Origin: Vicinamibacteria bacterium
GTDB taxonomy: Bacteria > Acidobacteriota > Vicinamibacteria > Marinacidobacterales > Marinacidobacteraceae
Direction of reading: 5' to 3'
NCBI GenBank assembly: GCA_964291235.2
Contig: OZ219816.1
Coordinates: 1,216,001 to 1,280,000 of the forward strand
DNA: 64,000 bases
In this document: positions 17,743-46,495 of the stretch, piece by piece
Layout of the letters: the number at the start of each line of letters is the position of its first letter
Position numbering within the stretch: the stretch's first letter is position 1
Program-made: the position numbers and the translations under genes
The notes under the pieces: generated by a model
Seen by the model: only the letters and a program-made list of their open reading frames with translations
Told to the model about the DNA's origin: nothing
Database searches by the model: none

Positions 17743-17849
17743 GAGGCGGGTGGAATTCGTCCGGTGGCGCCCGCCGCATTGCCGCCTCGGCGGGGTTTCC
17801 GTCATCATTGCGAGCCGCACTCCTCTTTCCGCAAAGGTTGCATTCCAAA

Positions 17850-20414
17850 ATGAAGACGAAATTCCGTTCCCGCCTCGCCTTCCGGTCGGCGCTGGTGTTG
17901 CTGGTAGCCGCCTTTACGGCGGCGCCCGTGTTCTCCCAGGACGCGCCGCCCACCATCGAAGAGAAGACCTCCGGGATGGAGCCGATTTCCGGGTTCGTGC
18001 CGCTCTTCTGGGACGAGCGCACGGGGCACCTGTTCGCCGAGTTCGCAGAAATGGACGAGGAGTTCCTCTATTCGGTTTCGGCGGCTTCCGGCCTGGGCAG
18101 CAACCCGATCGGGCTGGATCGGGGACAGATCAGCCGGCGCGCCATCCTCAAGCCGATTCGGGTCGGCCCGCGGGTGCTGCTCATGGAACCCAACTACCGC
18201 TTCCGTGCCGTCAGCGACAACCCCGACGAGGTGCGCGCGGTACAGGACGCCTTCGCCCCCTCGGTGCACTGGGGCTTCCAGGTGGTGGCGGAAACCGGAG
18301 AGCGGGTCCTCGTGGACATGACCGACTTCTTCCTGCGGGACGCCCACGGTTCCGCAGCGCGGATCCAGCGCGCCGGGCAGGGGACCTACCGGCTGGACCG
18401 GGACCGGAGTGTCTTCTACCTGCCGAACATCAAGGGCTTCCCCGACAACACCGAAGTGGAGACGATGCTGACGTTCACGAGCGACCAGCCCGGGCGGCTG
18501 GTAACCGGCGTCGCCGCCAGCGGGGACGCGGTGACCCTGCGGCACCACCATTCGCTCGTGCGGCTGCCGGGACCGGGTTTCGAGGTCCGGGTGGCCGACC
18601 CCCGCATCGGGGTGAACGGCCCCACCTACATGGACTACGCGACCCCGATCGACCAGCCCATGACGGTGCGGCTGACCGCCCGCCACCGGCTTGAGAAGGT
18701 TGATCCCACCGCGGAACGTTCGGAGGTCGTGGAACCGATCGTGTACTACCTCGACCGCGGCGTCCCCGAGCCGGTGCGCACCGCGCTCCTCGAGGGCGCC
18801 CGCTGGTGGGCCGAGGCCTTCGAGGCGGCCGGATTCATCGATGCCTATCGGGTCGAAGTGCTGCCGGAGGGAGCCGACGCCCAGGACATCCGCTACAACA
18901 TGATCCACTGGACGCATCGCCGCACCCGCGGCTGGTCGTACGGGGGAGGGGTCCAGGATCCGCGAACCGGGGAGATCATCAAGGGCAACGTGAACCTGGG
19001 TAGCCTGCGGCTCCGCCAGGACCACCTCCACGGGGTGGGTCTGGTGGCGCCTTTCGACGGGGCCTCCGGCGCTCCTCCCGCCGGGCTGCCGCCGGATCCG
19101 GACGGACCCCACTCCTGCGGGCTCTCCGCCGCCCCGGGCTTTTCCTATCTGGCCCAGGTGGGCGAGGGCGCGTCGCCGGTGGACCTGGCACTCGCCCGGG
19201 TCGCCCAGCTTTCCGCCCACGAAGTCGGGCACACGCTCGGCTTTCCGCACAACTACATGAGTTCGACCTACGGCGGCCGGGCCAGCGTCATGGACTACCC
19301 GGCGCCGCTCGCGGTCCTCGAGGACGGCGTGGTGAAGCTGGATGACGCCTACGGGGTCGGGGTGGGCTCCTACGACATCCTGTCCGTTCGCTGGGCCTAC
19401 GGACAGTTCTCGCCGGAGGAGACCGCCGCGGCGCTCGACGCCATCATGCAGGAAGGGCTGATGTCCGAGACGCGGTTCATGGCCCACACCGACAACTACA
19501 TCGGCGCGGGCGCCCATCCGCTCGCCTCCGTCTGGGACAACGGCCAGGACCTGGTCCGGCACCTGGGACGCGAAATCGAGATCCGCCAGGCCGGGCTCGA
19601 CGCGTTCGGGGAAAACGTCATCCGGCCGGGCGAGGCCATGTCACTGCTCGAGCCCGTGCTGGTTCCGCTCTACCTGCACCACCGCTTCCAGATGAAGGCG
19701 GCGCTGAACACCGTCGGCGGCCAGGAGTACTACTACGCGGTGCGGGGTGACGGACAGCGACCGGTCGCGTCCGTTCCGGGAAGCCGCCAGCGGGAGGCGC
19801 TCGACATCGTCCTCCAGACGCTCGAAACCGACTTCCTGGCGCTGCCGGAACGGATCATCGAGATGATCCCTCCGCCCGCCTACCGGGAAGCCGGTGGCGA
19901 GACCTTCGACGGCAACACCGGCCTGGTATTCGACCCGCTCGCGGCCGCGGACACCTCGGCTGACTACACGGTGGAGCTCCTGCTCCACCCGGAGCGGATG
20001 GCGCGGCTCGTGAACAATCACGCCCTGGATCCCGACCAACCCGGACTCGCGGAAGTGCTGGATCGACTGGTCGAAGAGACCTGGGGCGCCGCGGAGCCGG
20101 AGGGCAGCTACCGGCGGGCGGTGCAGGACGCCGCCGAGCGGAGCGTCCTGAACGGCATGATGCGCGAGGCGATGAACCCGGACAACCCGGCGCGGGTGCG
20201 GGCGGTCCTCGAGGATCGGCTCATGGCCCTCGGGGGAACGCTCGGTGACATGGACGGTAGAACGCCTCACGAGACGTTGGCCGCCGCCGACATCCACCGG
20301 TTCGCCAACCGCGACGAGAGCCTCGACCCGAACGCCAGCCGTCCGGAGCGGCCGCCGGGATCGCCCATCGGGGGCGCGAGCGCTTCCGGGACGCGGAGGG
20401 TTCCGGGTCGCTGA
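17850..20414 (+). CDS. Secreted zinc-dependent metalloprotease (metzincin; DUF5117/DUF4953-type)
   Basis: Signal peptide, HEVGHTLGFPH zinc motif and Met-turn ASVMDYP. Confidence 0.9.
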   Translation: MKTKFRSRLAFRSALVLLVAAFTAAPVFSQDAPPTIEEKTSGMEPISGFVPLFWDERTGHLFAEFAEMDEEFLYSVSAASGLGSNPIGLDRGQISRRAILKPIRVGPRVLLMEPNYRFRAVSDNPDEVRAVQDAFAPSVHWGFQVVAETGERVLVDMTDFFLRDAHGSAARIQRAGQGTYRLDRDRSVFYLPNIKGFPDNTEVETMLTFTSDQPGRLVTGVAASGDAVTLRHHHSLVRLPGPGFEVRVADPRIGVNGPTYMDYATPIDQPMTVRLTARHRLEKVDPTAERSEVVEPIVYYLDRGVPEPVRTALLEGARWWAEAFEAAGFIDAYRVEVLPEGADAQDIRYNMIHWTHRRTRGWSYGGGVQDPRTGEIIKGNVNLGSLRLRQDHLHGVGLVAPFDGASGAPPAGLPPDPDGPHSCGLSAAPGFSYLAQVGEGASPVDLALARVAQLSAHEVGHTLGFPHNYMSSTYGGRASVMDYPAPLAVLEDGVVKLDDAYGVGVGSYDILSVRWAYGQFSPEETAAALDAIMQEGLMSETRFMAHTDNYIGAGAHPLASVWDNGQDLVRHLGREIEIRQAGLDAFGENVIRPGEAMSLLEPVLVPLYLHHRFQMKAALNTVGGQEYYYAVRGDGQRPVASVPGSRQREALDIVLQTLETDFLALPERIIEMIPPPAYREAGGETFDGNTGLVFDPLAAADTSADYTVELLLHPERMARLVNNHALDPDQPGLAEVLDRLVEETWGAAEPEGSYRRAVQDAAERSVLNGMMREAMNPDNPARVRAVLEDRLMALGGTLGDMDGRTPHETLAAADIHRFANRDESLDPNASRPERPPGSPIGGASASGTRRVPGR

Positions 20415-20420
20415 CCCCGC

Positions 20421-20460
20421 GGAGCGGCGAGTTCGGCTTGACTCGCCGCTCCCGGTTTCT
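20421..20460 (+). terminator. Intrinsic terminator-like hairpin
   Basis: GGAGCGGCGAGT-(8 nt)-ACTCGCCGCTCC, a 12-bp perfect stem followed by CGGTTTCTT, just after the stop codon. Confidence 0.65.
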
Positions 20461-20465
20461 TGTCC

Positions 20466-20563
20466 GGATTCTGCATACTTCCGCGGTAGAGATCGACGCA
20501 GACTGGTTCTCCGCTCGGCGGGAATCCCACCAGCCTTGACGTCGCACGGGCACGGGAGCCCCC
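20466..20563 (-). repeat. Terminal module plus start of an inverted REP-like unit, interrupted by IS110
   Basis: Homologous to 46200-46290 and to the reverse complements of 22740-22823 and 53618-53687; continues at 22102 after the IS. Confidence 0.8.
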
Positions 20564-20565
20564 TA

Positions 20566-20571
20566 TAGGAT
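20566..20571 (+). promoter_or_regulatory. -10 box (TAGGAT) of the circle-junction promoter; the -35 (TTGCGT) is at 22081-22086
   Basis: Joining the right and left ends through one CC gives TTGCGT-17 bp-TAGGAT. Confidence 0.6.
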
Positions 20572-20577
20572 CGGCGA

Positions 20578-20770
20578 CGTCCTGCGGGAGCTGAGATTCA
20601 GCTGCCGTTGTATCAACTCAGGTTGGCCAATCCGCCGGGAGTACTAACTGAGCCCCGGTGCTGCGAGCACCTACGGTGGACACGTACCCCGACGGATGGC
20701 CGTGATGGACGACCAGTGGAGAGTCGGTTCCAATCGAGAACCAGTATAGGGGCTGGACAGCATCGCGGCG
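20578..20770 (+). ncRNA. IS110 bridge RNA (target-binding loop about 20625-20701, donor-binding loop about 20701-20767)
   Basis: Two stem-flanked internal loops whose guide segments match the target (GAGCCCC / CGGTGG) and the donor (GTGGAGAGTC / TATAGG), plus a 5' hairpin AGCTGA-GAT-TCAGCT. The ends are approximate. Confidence 0.85.
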
Positions 20771-20812
20771 CGGCGGACCTCCGACGGAGCGCAAGCTCGA
20801 AGGAAGACAGCG

Positions 20813-22075
20813 ATGAAGCAGAAGCTGAGCTGGTTCGTGGGCATCGACTGGGGCGAGCAGAGCCACCAGGTGTGCCTGTGCGACAGGCGCGGGAAGGTGC
20901 GCGGGGAGCGCGCCTTCGCGCACAAGGGATCGGGGCTGGCGGCCCTGGTGAAGTGGCTTAGGAAGCAGACGGGTGTGCCGCCGGCGCGGGTGGCGGTCGC
21001 GATCGAGCGGCCGGATGGGGCGGTGGTGGCGACGCTGCTGGAGGCGGGGTTTGCGGTCTATGCGGTGAACCCGCGGCAGACGAGCCACCTGCGGAAGTTC
21101 ATCTCCCACCCGGGGCACAAGAACGACCGGCGGGACGCCCGGATGTTGGCCACCACGCTGCAGGCGAGCCTGGCGGGGTTCCGGCTGCTGGTGCCGCTAC
21201 CGGGGTTGGTGCTGCGGCTGCGGGAGCGGACCCGGACGGCGGACCGTCTGCTCCAGGAGCAGGTCCGGCAGTGCCTGCGGATCCGGAGTGCGCTGGTGGA
21301 CTACTTCCCGCAACTGCTGGAGGTAGCCGGCGAGGCGAAGAACCTGGGGACTCCGTTCTTCCGGGAGTTGTGGGCTCGGGCTTCTACGCCGGCGAAAGCG
21401 CGGAAGGTGTGGTTGTCCACGTTGGAGAAGCTGGTTCGGCGGTATGGAGTGACCCGGATCAGCGCCGCGCGGATCCAGGCGTTGTTCCGGGAGCCGGCGT
21501 TGGTGATGGCGCCGGGGGCGACCGAGGCGTCGGTGGAGACGATCCGCACGGCGCTCGCGCAGTTGGAGGTCGTGCGAGCGGAACTCGTCCGGGCGGAGGG
21601 CCAGATGACCCAGCTGCTGGACGAGTTCTCGGAGACGGCGGAGGCCGGGGGTGGTTCGGATGCCACGGGCCTGGATCTGGTGAGCGCGTTGCGCTCACGC
21701 CCGGGCGCGGGGGACAAGGCGCTGGCCCGGTTGTTCGCCTGGGGCTTCGAAGCGCTCTCGGAGGGGAACTACCGCCGTCTGCGCGCCTACTGTGGAGTAG
21801 CCCCGATCGAGGACCAGTCCGGCAAGTCCGCACAGCTCCGGCAACGGCGCGCCGTTCCCAGTTCGCTGCAACACGCCACCTACATCCTGGCGCGGGGGGT
21901 CGTCCGCTGGGACGAGAAGGTGGCGGCCTACAACCGGAAGTTGAAGGCGGAAGGGAAGCACACGGCCCGGCGCCACCGGAGCATCGCGGATCAACAACTC
22001 CGGGTGCTGTGCGCGATGGCCCGGAACCGAACCCTCTTTGATCCCAACTTCTCCCAGAAGCGGAGGGCCGCCTAA
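20813..22075 (+). CDS. IS110 family transposase/recombinase
   Basis: RuvC-like DEDD residues (FVGID, AIERP, KNDRRDA) and the C-terminal YCGVAPIEDQSG serine motif; AGGAAG RBS. Confidence 0.95.
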   Translation: MKQKLSWFVGIDWGEQSHQVCLCDRRGKVRGERAFAHKGSGLAALVKWLRKQTGVPPARVAVAIERPDGAVVATLLEAGFAVYAVNPRQTSHLRKFISHPGHKNDRRDARMLATTLQASLAGFRLLVPLPGLVLRLRERTRTADRLLQEQVRQCLRIRSALVDYFPQLLEVAGEAKNLGTPFFRELWARASTPAKARKVWLSTLEKLVRRYGVTRISAARIQALFREPALVMAPGATEASVETIRTALAQLEVVRAELVRAEGQMTQLLDEFSETAEAGGGSDATGLDLVSALRSRPGAGDKALARLFAWGFEALSEGNYRRLRAYCGVAPIEDQSGKSAQLRQRRAVPSSLQHATYILARGVVRWDEKVAAYNRKLKAEGKHTARRHRSIADQQLRVLCAMARNRTLFDPNFSQKRRAA

Positions 22076-22101
22076 CGCTCTTGCGTTCTCGTGGAAAGTC
22101 C

Positions 22102-22206
22102 ACCGGGAGAACTGGGCCGGCCTCCAGGCTGGCACAGCGGGCCGCAGGCCCGCGTCGGCGCAGACCCCACCCGTCGGCATGGTTCCCGTCTCGGCCCGTA
22201 CCCCAC
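22102..22206 (-). repeat. Remainder of the inverted REP-like unit downstream of the IS
   Basis: GCCGGCCTCCAGGCTGGCACAGC and ATGGTTCCCGTCTCGGCCCGTACCCCAC are near reverse complements of segments of the 121-bp unit. Confidence 0.7.
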
Positions 22207-22270
22207 TCGGCGCGGTGGCCCGGTTTTCTCTGTCGCCAAATGCACCGGTTCTGGATGTCGCTTGACGCAG

Positions 22271-22823
22271 GGCTGGTGGACTTCTCCCCGAGAGCGGAAC
22301 CATCGTGACGCTGGAGAGTCCGTCCGGCCGCCCGCCTGCGGCGGGCTGTGCCGGCCTGGAGGCCGGCGTTCCCGTGCCGGCGCGACATCAAGGCTGGTGG
22401 GGTGGCCGCCGAGAGGGGAACCATCCTGACGCTGAAGGGTCCGTCCCGCCGCCCGCCTGGGGCGGGCTGTGCCGACCAGAGGTCGGCGTTCCCGTGCCTA
22501 CGGGACATTAAGGCTGGTGGGGTGGCCGCGGAGAGGGGAACCATCGTGACGCTGAAGGGTCCGTCCCGCCGCCCGCCTGCGGCGGGCTGTGCCGGCCTGG
22601 AGGCCGGCGTTCCCGTGCCTGCGTGACATCAAGGCTGGTGGGGCGGCGGCCGAGAGGGGAACCGTCCTGACGCTGAAGGGTCCGTCCCGCCGCCCGCCTG
22701 CGGCGGGCTGTGCCGGCCTGGAGGCCGGCGTTCCCGTGCCTGGGCGACATCAAGGCTGGTGGGGTGGCGGCCGAGAGGGGAACTATCTGGCGTTGATCTC
22801 GGCGGCGGGAGTACGAGAAATCC
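22271..22823 (+). repeat. Tandem array of four about 121-bp REP/BIME-like units plus terminal module
   Basis: Units start at 22271, 22392, 22512 and 22633, with a partial unit at 22754. Each holds the palindromes CCCGCC-TGC-GGCGGG and GCCGGCC-TGGA-GGCCGGC. Confidence 0.9.
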
Positions 22824-46424: not shown

Positions 46425-46495
46425 GCTGTGCCGGCCCCCACCGGGAGAACTGGCCTGGAGGTCGGTCCAGTTCTCCCGGTGGGGACTCCCGTGCC
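46425..46495 (+). repeat. REP variant with 18-bp perfect inverted repeat; unoccupied IS110 target-like site on the minus strand
   Basis: CCCCACCGGGAGAACTGG (46436-46453) / CCAGTTCTCCCGGTGGGG (46467-46484). Confidence 0.85.

Follow-up and report, generated by a model that had tools for sequence, protein, structure and literature searches.

The window analysed here, a 64,000-nucleotide stretch of contig OZ219816.1 from a Vicinamibacteria bacterium, contains an insertion sequence (IS) of the IS110 group at positions 20564–22101. Judged by its sequence, a structural model of its protein, and analogy, the element would very probably be autonomous and move by bridge-RNA-guided recombination in the same way as IS621. 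We observed the boundaries and copy number of the element, an RNA structure with covariation, guides that covary with the flanks, and a recombinase with conserved catalytic residues and fold. A previous sequence-only reading of the window had placed a bridge RNA of the IS621 type in the left end of the element.

The ends of the element are delimited by its copies. A DNA search of the genome (3.45 Mb in two contigs, C1 and C2, with 68% G+C) finds five full copies, each of exactly 1538 bp and with the same junctions. The element and its surroundings are arranged as follows.

20564–22101, plus strand: whole IS110-group element of 1538 bp, including the right-hand copy of the CC core and delimited on the basis of five same-length copies.
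20562–20563: left-hand copy of the CC core, CC being present in both the left flank and the right end.
20554–20563, plus strand: left target half GGGAGCCC with the core CC, in a host repeat resembling repetitive extragenic palindromes (REP-like), identical in all five copies.
22102–22119, plus strand: right target half ACCG GGAGAACTGGGCCG, in the host repeat.

The left junction reads GGGAGCCC-CC|TATAGG, with the element starting at 20564, and the right junction reads GTGGAAAGT-CC|ACCG, with the element ending at 22101. Dinucleotide CC is found at both junctions in five of five copies, all of which are positioned inside GGGAGCCCCC|ACCGGGAGAAC, with GGGAGCCCCC as the left flank and ACCGGGAGAAC as the right flank. 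The reconstructed target, GGGAGCCC-CC-ACCG or GGGAGCCC-CC|ACCGGGAG, is borne by the repeat and is the same for all five copies. The joined ends of the element, which form the donor, read GTGGAAAGT-CC-TATAG. The sequence-only reading had deduced the same target and donor, and the junctions shared by the five copies confirm both.

The left end of the element comprises 249 noncoding nucleotides (nt) and the right end 26 nt (22076–22101). This asymmetry bears on the assignment of the element within its family. The IS1111 group uses a recombinase of this family and likewise chooses its targets by RNA, with a seekRNA, or right-end bridge RNA, located in a right end that carries long subterminal inverted repeats; its members are described as having long right ends and subterminal inverted repeats of 7–17 bp (PMC11208160). 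Membership of the element in this group would agree with the protein family, but the short right end and the position of the structured RNA, which holds both of its loops in the left end, make it extremely improbable. We describe the element as one with a left-end bridge RNA. The segments of this RNA that match the target and the donor are listed below.

20650–20656, plus strand: left target guide GAGCCCC, in top-strand sense and pairing with the bottom strand; it covers left target positions 2–7 and the first core base.
20657–20671, plus strand: terminal hairpin GGTGCT-GCG-AGCACC of the target loop.
20674–20679, plus strand: right target guide CGGTGG, the reverse complement of CC+ACCG.
20716–20725, plus strand: left donor guide GTGGAGAGTC, a 9/10 match to the right end at 22091–22100.
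20726–20730 and 20738–20742, plus strand: donor hairpin GGTTC/GAACC of the donor loop.
20745–20750, plus strand: right donor guide TATAGG, the reverse complement of CC+TATA.

All guide and hairpin motifs are located where the sequence-only reading had put them. The single mismatch of the left donor guide, G20721 opposite A22096, is a G·T wobble with the bottom strand, as had been proposed, and A/A and G/G co-occur at this position among the relatives. We compared the guide matches with 20,000 mononucleotide shuffles of 20577–20812. Taken singly, the four matches arise in 3.9%, 13%, 0.6%, and 2.8% of the shuffles (product about 9e-7), and jointly in none of the 20,000. The guide matches are real and not due to chance.

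The guides change together with the flanks among related elements. The counts cover 12 distinct elements with boundaries set from multiple copies and end motifs, and pairing was scored as Watson-Crick and wobble pairs over 17 anchored positions. Loci L049 (left-truncated) and L052–L057 (26–30% identity, with covariance-model E ≥ 0.013 or unmatched) are outside these counts, as is L044 on the left side; L039–L043, L046, L051, L028–L034, and L031 are extra copies of counted elements and served for fixing boundaries only. Cognate target pairing reaches 14–16 of 17 positions in 12/12 elements, against a non-cognate mean of 10.4 (n = 128), and every non-cognate score of at least 14 comes from two elements of one clade. 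There are six target classes, and in each the loop sequences fit the class's own target.

Target classes 1 and 2: GAGCCC-CC-ACCG; AGGCCC-CC-ACCG.
Target class 3: left halves ending in TGTC, GCCG, or GTCC, followed by CC-CCTCC.
Target classes 4 to 6: GCACT-CC-A(A/G)A; GCGCA-CC-CAGTG; CCCACC-CC-CGAGT.

On the donor side, the right guide TATAGG accompanies CC|TATA left ends, and GTACAGG accompanies CC|TGTAC in distant relatives, while the left donor guide (GGAAAG, GGAGAG, or GGGAAG) tracks the right end. The covariation of guides with target and donor, which the sequence-only reading had suggested as a check, is thus positive in 12/12 related elements. The CC core, which that reading had contrasted with the CT core of IS621, is common to the window element and all 12 relatives.

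The predicted bridge RNA is composed of a 5′ hairpin followed by a three-way junction with a target arm and a donor arm.

20578–20779, plus strand: predicted bridge RNA of about 200 nt; its 5′ end is placed from the −10 box, and its 3′ end is the end of helix P1.
20584–20608, plus strand: 5′ stem-loop with compensatory changes among relatives.
20621–20628, plus strand: 5′ strand of helix P1, which pairs with 20772–20779 and closes the three-way junction.
20772–20779, plus strand: 3′ strand of helix P1, supported by covariation and single-sequence folds.
20630–20697, plus strand: target-binding arm (stem, internal loop, and hairpin), in which helix 2 is 99.4% paired with 9/13 pairs compensatory.
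20699–20769, plus strand: donor-binding arm, helices 4 to 6.

The minimum free energy (MFE) fold of 20564–20812 calculated with RNAfold (−102.8 kcal/mol, z = −2.13) contains two arms with large internal loops. The left ends of close relatives align well, and compensatory changes affect the 5′ hairpin as well as the two terminal hairpins. In an alignment of 13 sequences, 93% of the cells are paired, compared to 34–40% in slid controls; compensatory changes occur in 25 of 41 pairs, and none of 500 shuffles is as good. Searching with a covariance model of seven close left ends recovers the RNA upstream of transposases of 26–40% identity (E 1e-9 to 5e-13), and covariance model R1 matches 20619–20781 at 179.5 bits. 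Folding and covariance modelling, both proposed together with the sequence-only reading, agree with its assignment of an IS621-type architecture, and the layout published for IS621 (PMC11208160, PMC11208158) is matched.

One detail of that reading required revision. It had closed loop 1 by the pairing GGCCA/TGGCC, which is 82.8% paired over the 13 relatives, contains one compensatory pair, and is equalled by 128 of 500 shuffles. This closure, which has almost no covariation support, is better replaced by helix P1 (20621–20628/20772–20779), which is 96.4% paired, has compensatory changes in 4/7 pairs, and is present in the MFE fold of 12 of 13 single sequences. Since the outer helix P1 is supported, the structured RNA runs to about 20779 and not to 20770. 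The copies within the genome carry a further compensatory pair in the 5′ hairpin, where 20592 T>C is combined with 20600 A>G in two copies. None of the 18 differences between the two element variants of the genome falls in a guide, and together with the hairpin compensation this points to selection on the RNA, as far as can be judged from the sequence.

The structured left end could alternatively be a leader (5′ untranslated region) or a set of subterminal protein-binding sites, with flank matches that are coincidental or represent end repeats. The donor-side matches GTGGAGAGTC and TATAGG do repeat the element termini, like the subterminal repeats of other IS families, but the target-side guides match DNA outside the element and change with the flanks over the six target classes in 12/12 elements. 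The left end as a whole has a z-score of only −2.13, and the RNA is read here from its DNA; against this, the orientation of the guides, with the 5′ guide in sense and the 3′ guide in antisense, conforms to the published RNA model, as do the handshake bases, and the four matches never occurred jointly in the shuffles. We consider the leader explanation very improbable.

The bridge RNA also contains the bases for a handshake between target and donor, and the element ends hold the halves of a predicted promoter.

20680–20681, plus strand: target-loop handshake AC, complementary to the donor GT (22098–22099) and not to the target CC.
20751–20752, plus strand: donor-loop handshake GG, complementary to the target CC (20560–20561).
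22081–22086, plus strand: TTGCGT, predicted −35-like half in the right end; the promoter is complete only at the circle junction.
20566–20571, plus strand: TAGGAT, predicted −10-like half in the left end.

Handshake guides have been described for IS621 (PMC11208158; PMC13626964). Both are perfect in the window element, AC with GT and GG with CC. The target-loop handshake matches donor position 7 in 11/12 elements and the element's own target in 1/12; the donor-loop handshake matches target position 7 in 9/12 elements, with covariation (CC, CT, and xA). In the computed junction of the right end to the left end (RE-LE), TTGCGT-N17-TAGGAT is the only sigma-70-like match, and the sigma-70 scan of the integrated locus found 0 promoter-like sites. 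The same geometry, TTGnnn-N17-TAnnnT, is present in 12/12 relatives, several of which have a perfect TTGACA. By consensus match, the junction would fit the promoter type described for IS621 (PMC11208160).

The left end is followed by a single long open reading frame (ORF), which encodes the recombinase.

20813–22075, plus strand: recombinase gene, 420 amino acids (aa), with a RuvC-like DEDD domain, a long coiled coil with a helical insert, and a Tnp domain with Ser336.

The protein matches Pfam families PF01548 DEDD_Tnp_IS110 (4.6e-28, 98.4 bits) and PF02371 Transposase_20 (1.4e-8, 35.4 bits), both above the cut-off. The only sequence matches in the PDB are ISCro4 (phmmer E 2.6e-7) and IS621 (3.3e-6). 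In a HMMER alignment to these two proteins, residues D12, E65, D105, D108, and S336 align with D11, E60, D102, D105, and S241 of IS621, the catalytic roles of which have been described (PMC11208158); in 27 relatives, all five are either invariant or conserved at 90% or more. The AlphaFold2 model, built with the alignment of relatives, has a predicted local distance difference test score of 87.5. Over its whole length, it matches the IS621 and ISCro4 chains in Foldseek (E 2.5e-11 to 2.3e-10, target TM-score 0.67–0.71, identity 18–20%), with hits to 8wt9 (E 2.5e-11), 8wt6, and 9t56, and with ISCro4 at E 9e-11. About 90 extra residues are located in the coiled-coil region, where the model predicts long helices 131–164 and 236–273 with a bundle of short helices between them. 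Sequence and model support the assignment as an IS110 DEDD/Ser recombinase of the IS621 fold. The intact recombinase expected from the sequence-only reading is present, with both Pfam domains, aligned catalytic residues, and an IS621-like whole-length model.

From these features, and with transcription, RNA–protein binding, and chemistry taken over from the IS621 literature, we propose the following mechanism. Excision would join the right end of the element to the left end and set TTGCGT 17 nt upstream of TAGGAT, so that a bridge RNA of about 200 nt could be transcribed from the left end. The RNA would fold into the 5′ hairpin and the three-way junction, presenting GAGCCCC and CGGTGG in the target arm and GTGGAGAGTC and TATAGG in the donor arm, and would be bound by the 420-aa DEDD/Ser recombinase. 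Two DNAs would be recognised, the target GAGCCC-CC-ACCG within the REP-like repeat and the circle junction GTGGAAAGT-CC-TATAG; in each, the 5′ guide would pair with the bottom strand and the 3′ guide with the top strand. Strand exchange would take place at the CC core. After top-strand exchange, AC and GG, positioned 3′ of the right guides, would pair across to the partner DNA in the handshake.

Several observations weigh against this reading of the element. No RNA run is among the public sequencing runs listed for this sequence. The alignment used for covariation (A5) had been fitted to the model and hence favors the modelled structure, though the single-sequence folds agree with it. A search of 20300–22800 against Rfam 15 (E ≤ 1) returned no family, which shows only that no curated model recognises the RNA. 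The NCBIfam model NF033542 (IS110 family RNA-guided transposase) scores 139.7 bits against a cut-off of 140, covering 1–342/343, and the protein is only about 19% identical to that of IS621, the element studied by experiment. The left guides extend no further than the first core base, and all four guides of IS621 are described as including the core (PMC11208160). The junction promoter of the window element is a weak consensus match (7/12). In contigs of four public sequencing runs over the locus, neither the circle junction nor the empty form of this site (joint 20563/22102) is seen, and contigs cannot show absence.

The contigs, from public runs X1, X4, X5, and X6, were compared with 20200–22500. 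They break off at the element ends (about 20559–20578 and 22118–22119) and carry the same variant letters as the two element variants that coexist in the genome. The word depth of the element relative to the left flank, about 5.8x in X1 and 8.3x in X4, fits a multi-copy repeat; the best-covering run may be the source sample, so the depth figures are not independent support. A joint 20590->22100 in X5 (depth 3, side 28) is below reliability hints and resembles a related repeat of another organism, and was not used.

Three of the five copies are identical or one site apart, and the other two, at C2:869k and C2:2040k, constitute the variant that differs at 18 of 1538 positions. The near-identity of the three suggests recent movement, judging from their sequences. 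The covariance-model and Pfam-family searches of the genome give five matches each, all on contig C2, and across the whole genome they reveal neither orphan bridge RNAs nor further IS110-family genes. It is also conceivable, although improbable, that the element is a true bridge-RNA IS with copies that are immobile here, either as recent fossils or for want of a host factor or expression. The contigs lacking a circle junction and an empty allele would be in keeping with this, as would the weakly matching promoter halves and the presence of 5/5 copies on C2, though three of the five exact empty 18-mers of the target lie on C1. Against immobility stand the 0–1 differences per 1538 positions among three copies, a reading frame open in all five, intact catalytic residues, and guides that still fit target and donor. 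The differences between the variants, moreover, include the compensatory pair of the 5′ hairpin and spare the guides.

The target lies in an abundant host sequence. The uninterrupted empty 18-mer has five exact occurrences in the genome and many near matches, and motif CCCACCGGGAGAAC has about 100 genomic copies. The roughly 99 occurrences of motif CCCCCACCGGGAG identify the target as part of a REP-like repeat. The motif in the form CCCCCACCGGGAG(AAC), about 100 in the genome, is spread over several repeat families and also flanks related elements in other Vicinamibacteria metagenome-assembled genomes (MAGs; L039–L047). Within the window, at 46430–46495, two motif copies face each other in a palindrome, and the minus-strand copy at 46473–46490 is an empty near-cognate site with one mismatch. 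The occupied sites are all of the GGGAG type: 5/12 such sites carry the element, compared to 0/14 others sharing the same 12 guide-paired bases. A hand calculation gives 792/65780, or about 0.012, for this bias, with small numbers and related sites. Target choice appears more restricted than the 12 guide-paired bases would require, with occupancy confined to the GGGAG-type repeat family.

This habit resembles that of ISPpu10 and ISPpu9 of Pseudomonas putida, a host of a different phylum, which target one repetitive extragenic family in the published descriptions (10.64898/2026.03.19.712850, PMC12288879). For ISPpu10, a target stem-loop is reported to add specificity beyond base pairing (10.64898/2026.03.19.712850), and the GGGAG-only occupancy recalls this extra determinant; the likeness is one of target habit.

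The window element shares its overall organization with IS621 from E. coli (Durrant 2024, PMC11208160; Hiraizumi 2024, PMC11208158; PDB 8WT6–8WT9). Common to both are the domain order RuvC(DEDD), coiled coil, and Tnp(Ser), and a guide RNA in a long left end opposite a short right end. As published for IS621 (PMC11208160, PMC11208158), the 5′ stem-loop is followed by the target loop and the donor loop; left guides in top-strand sense pair with the bottom strand, and antisense right guides pair with the top strand. The 2-nt core, the handshake dinucleotides, and the insertion into repeated extragenic elements are likewise features described for IS621, as is a junction promoter of the kind predicted here across RE/LE.

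The two elements differ in protein, core, and RNA. The recombinase of the window element, at about 19% identity, has 420 aa in place of 326 aa and a predicted helical insert of about 70 aa (about residues 165–235) at the coiled-coil tip. Its core is CC, whereas that of IS621 is CT. Among IS621 relatives, the second core T is described as ‘almost invariant’ and as read by a backbone amide (PMC11208158). A CT core with a near-invariant second T is found neither in the window element nor in its 12 relatives, and we did not file the element in the IS621 subgroup because its core is CC. The right target guide is a contiguous 6 nt, compared to 4 nt described for IS621, and the left guides of this clade, unlike those published for IS621, stop at the first core base.

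The arms of the bridge RNA are closed by helix P1 into a three-way junction with 1–2-nt joints, in contrast to IS621. The IS621 RNA is described as a target-binding loop (TBL, nt 34–98), a flexible linker of about 11 nt, and a donor-binding loop (DBL, nt 110–177), and its synaptic complex as receiving TBL and DBL from two RNA molecules (PMC11208158); the absence of a closing helix in IS621 is taken from this published TBL/linker/DBL description and not from a fold. ISCro4, or IS622, from Citrobacter rodentium (Perry 2025, preprint 10.1101/2025.05.14.653916; PDB 9T56) has the same fold as the window recombinase and the same RNA logic. Its core is CT and it is 88% identical to IS621, unlike the distant window protein.

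The element is of a kind already known, for which predictions published in 2024 comprise thousands of RNAs (PMC11208160). By its sequence, it is an unnamed and divergent member that is 19% identical to IS621 and does not exceed 41% identity with any annotated gene on plasmids. Its clade, or elements with CC cores, may already be included in the tables of predicted IS110 elements and bridge RNAs of Durrant et al. We do not claim CC cores or three-way-junction bridge RNAs as unreported, the comparison being limited to the descriptions in PMC11208160, PMC11208158, and 10.1101/2025.05.14.653916. Because of the CC core, the three-way junction tied by P1, the coiled-coil-tip module of about 70 aa, and the narrower target choice, we speculate that the window element, its Vicinamibacteria relatives, and the group at 26–40% identity (about 412–420 aa) could form a mechanistically distinct branch of bridge recombinases, a proposal that we hold to be possible but doubtful. 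Such a branch would have another synapsis geometry and other core rules, and would yield an orthogonal programmable recombinase.

Bridge recombinases are under development as tools with which DNA can be inserted, excised, or inverted in a programmable way, and nearly all mechanistic work concerns IS621 and ISCro4, with their CT cores. For a distant member of the class, the window element supplies a complete and internally consistent set of parts, namely the recombinase, an RNA of about 200 nt, a target of 12 nt, the donor, and the bases of the handshake. Its natural relatives already show six reprogrammed targets. With this set of parts, the CC core, the differently folded RNA, and the targets of the relatives, the element is a reasonable choice as a candidate orthogonal system and for studying how the core dinucleotide is determined. 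Biologically, there is nothing unusual about a multi-copy IS that occupies REP-like repeats in the genome of an acidobacterium.

The relatives of the recombinase form a small clade at 50–81% identity, none of them named, below which identity falls to about 40% for a large group. The nearest proteins, 81% and 67% identical, are unnamed, and the nearest annotated plasmid gene, 41% identical, bears no annotation beyond ‘IS110 family transposase’. Among species-representative genomes, loci were found in Vicinamibacteria and related MAGs, at 82% identity for L038–L043, 67% for L044, and 63–64% for L045–L047, as well as truncated forms (L048, L049, and L051). In a sample of 300 genomes of the phylum, five more genomes encode proteins of 30–40% identity.

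Some of the related loci deviate from the window element. In L044 (2170–2305), the RNA body, gene, and right end are normal, the 5′ hairpin is degenerate, and no CC|TATA left terminus was found; within 130 nt upstream there is no recognisable left terminus or matching left target. The sequence suggests that its left end may be truncated or replaced. L048 (2345–3482) and L051, which have the same flanks, represent a 1138-bp deletion derivative that keeps both ends and the whole bridge RNA and lacks about the first 170 recombinase codons, corresponding to the RuvC domain. From its sequence, the derivative could be a non-autonomous element movable in trans. In elements L038–L043 (1725 bp) and L045–L047 (1988–1999 bp), about 190–460 bp of additional sequence separate the stop codon from the conserved right terminus, compared to only 26 nt between stop codon and end in the window element.

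The element is located in an intergenic repeat just past an upstream ORF (17808–20414, plus strand, 868 aa), in which an HEVGH zinc-metalloprotease-like motif was recognised by eye. A terminator-like hairpin at 20421–20452 belongs to this ORF. About 190 bp downstream of the element, a tandem array at 22288–22787 consists of 4.1 copies of a 121-bp unit with 91% matches. The units look like the REP-like repeat family bearing the target motif, in reversed orientation.

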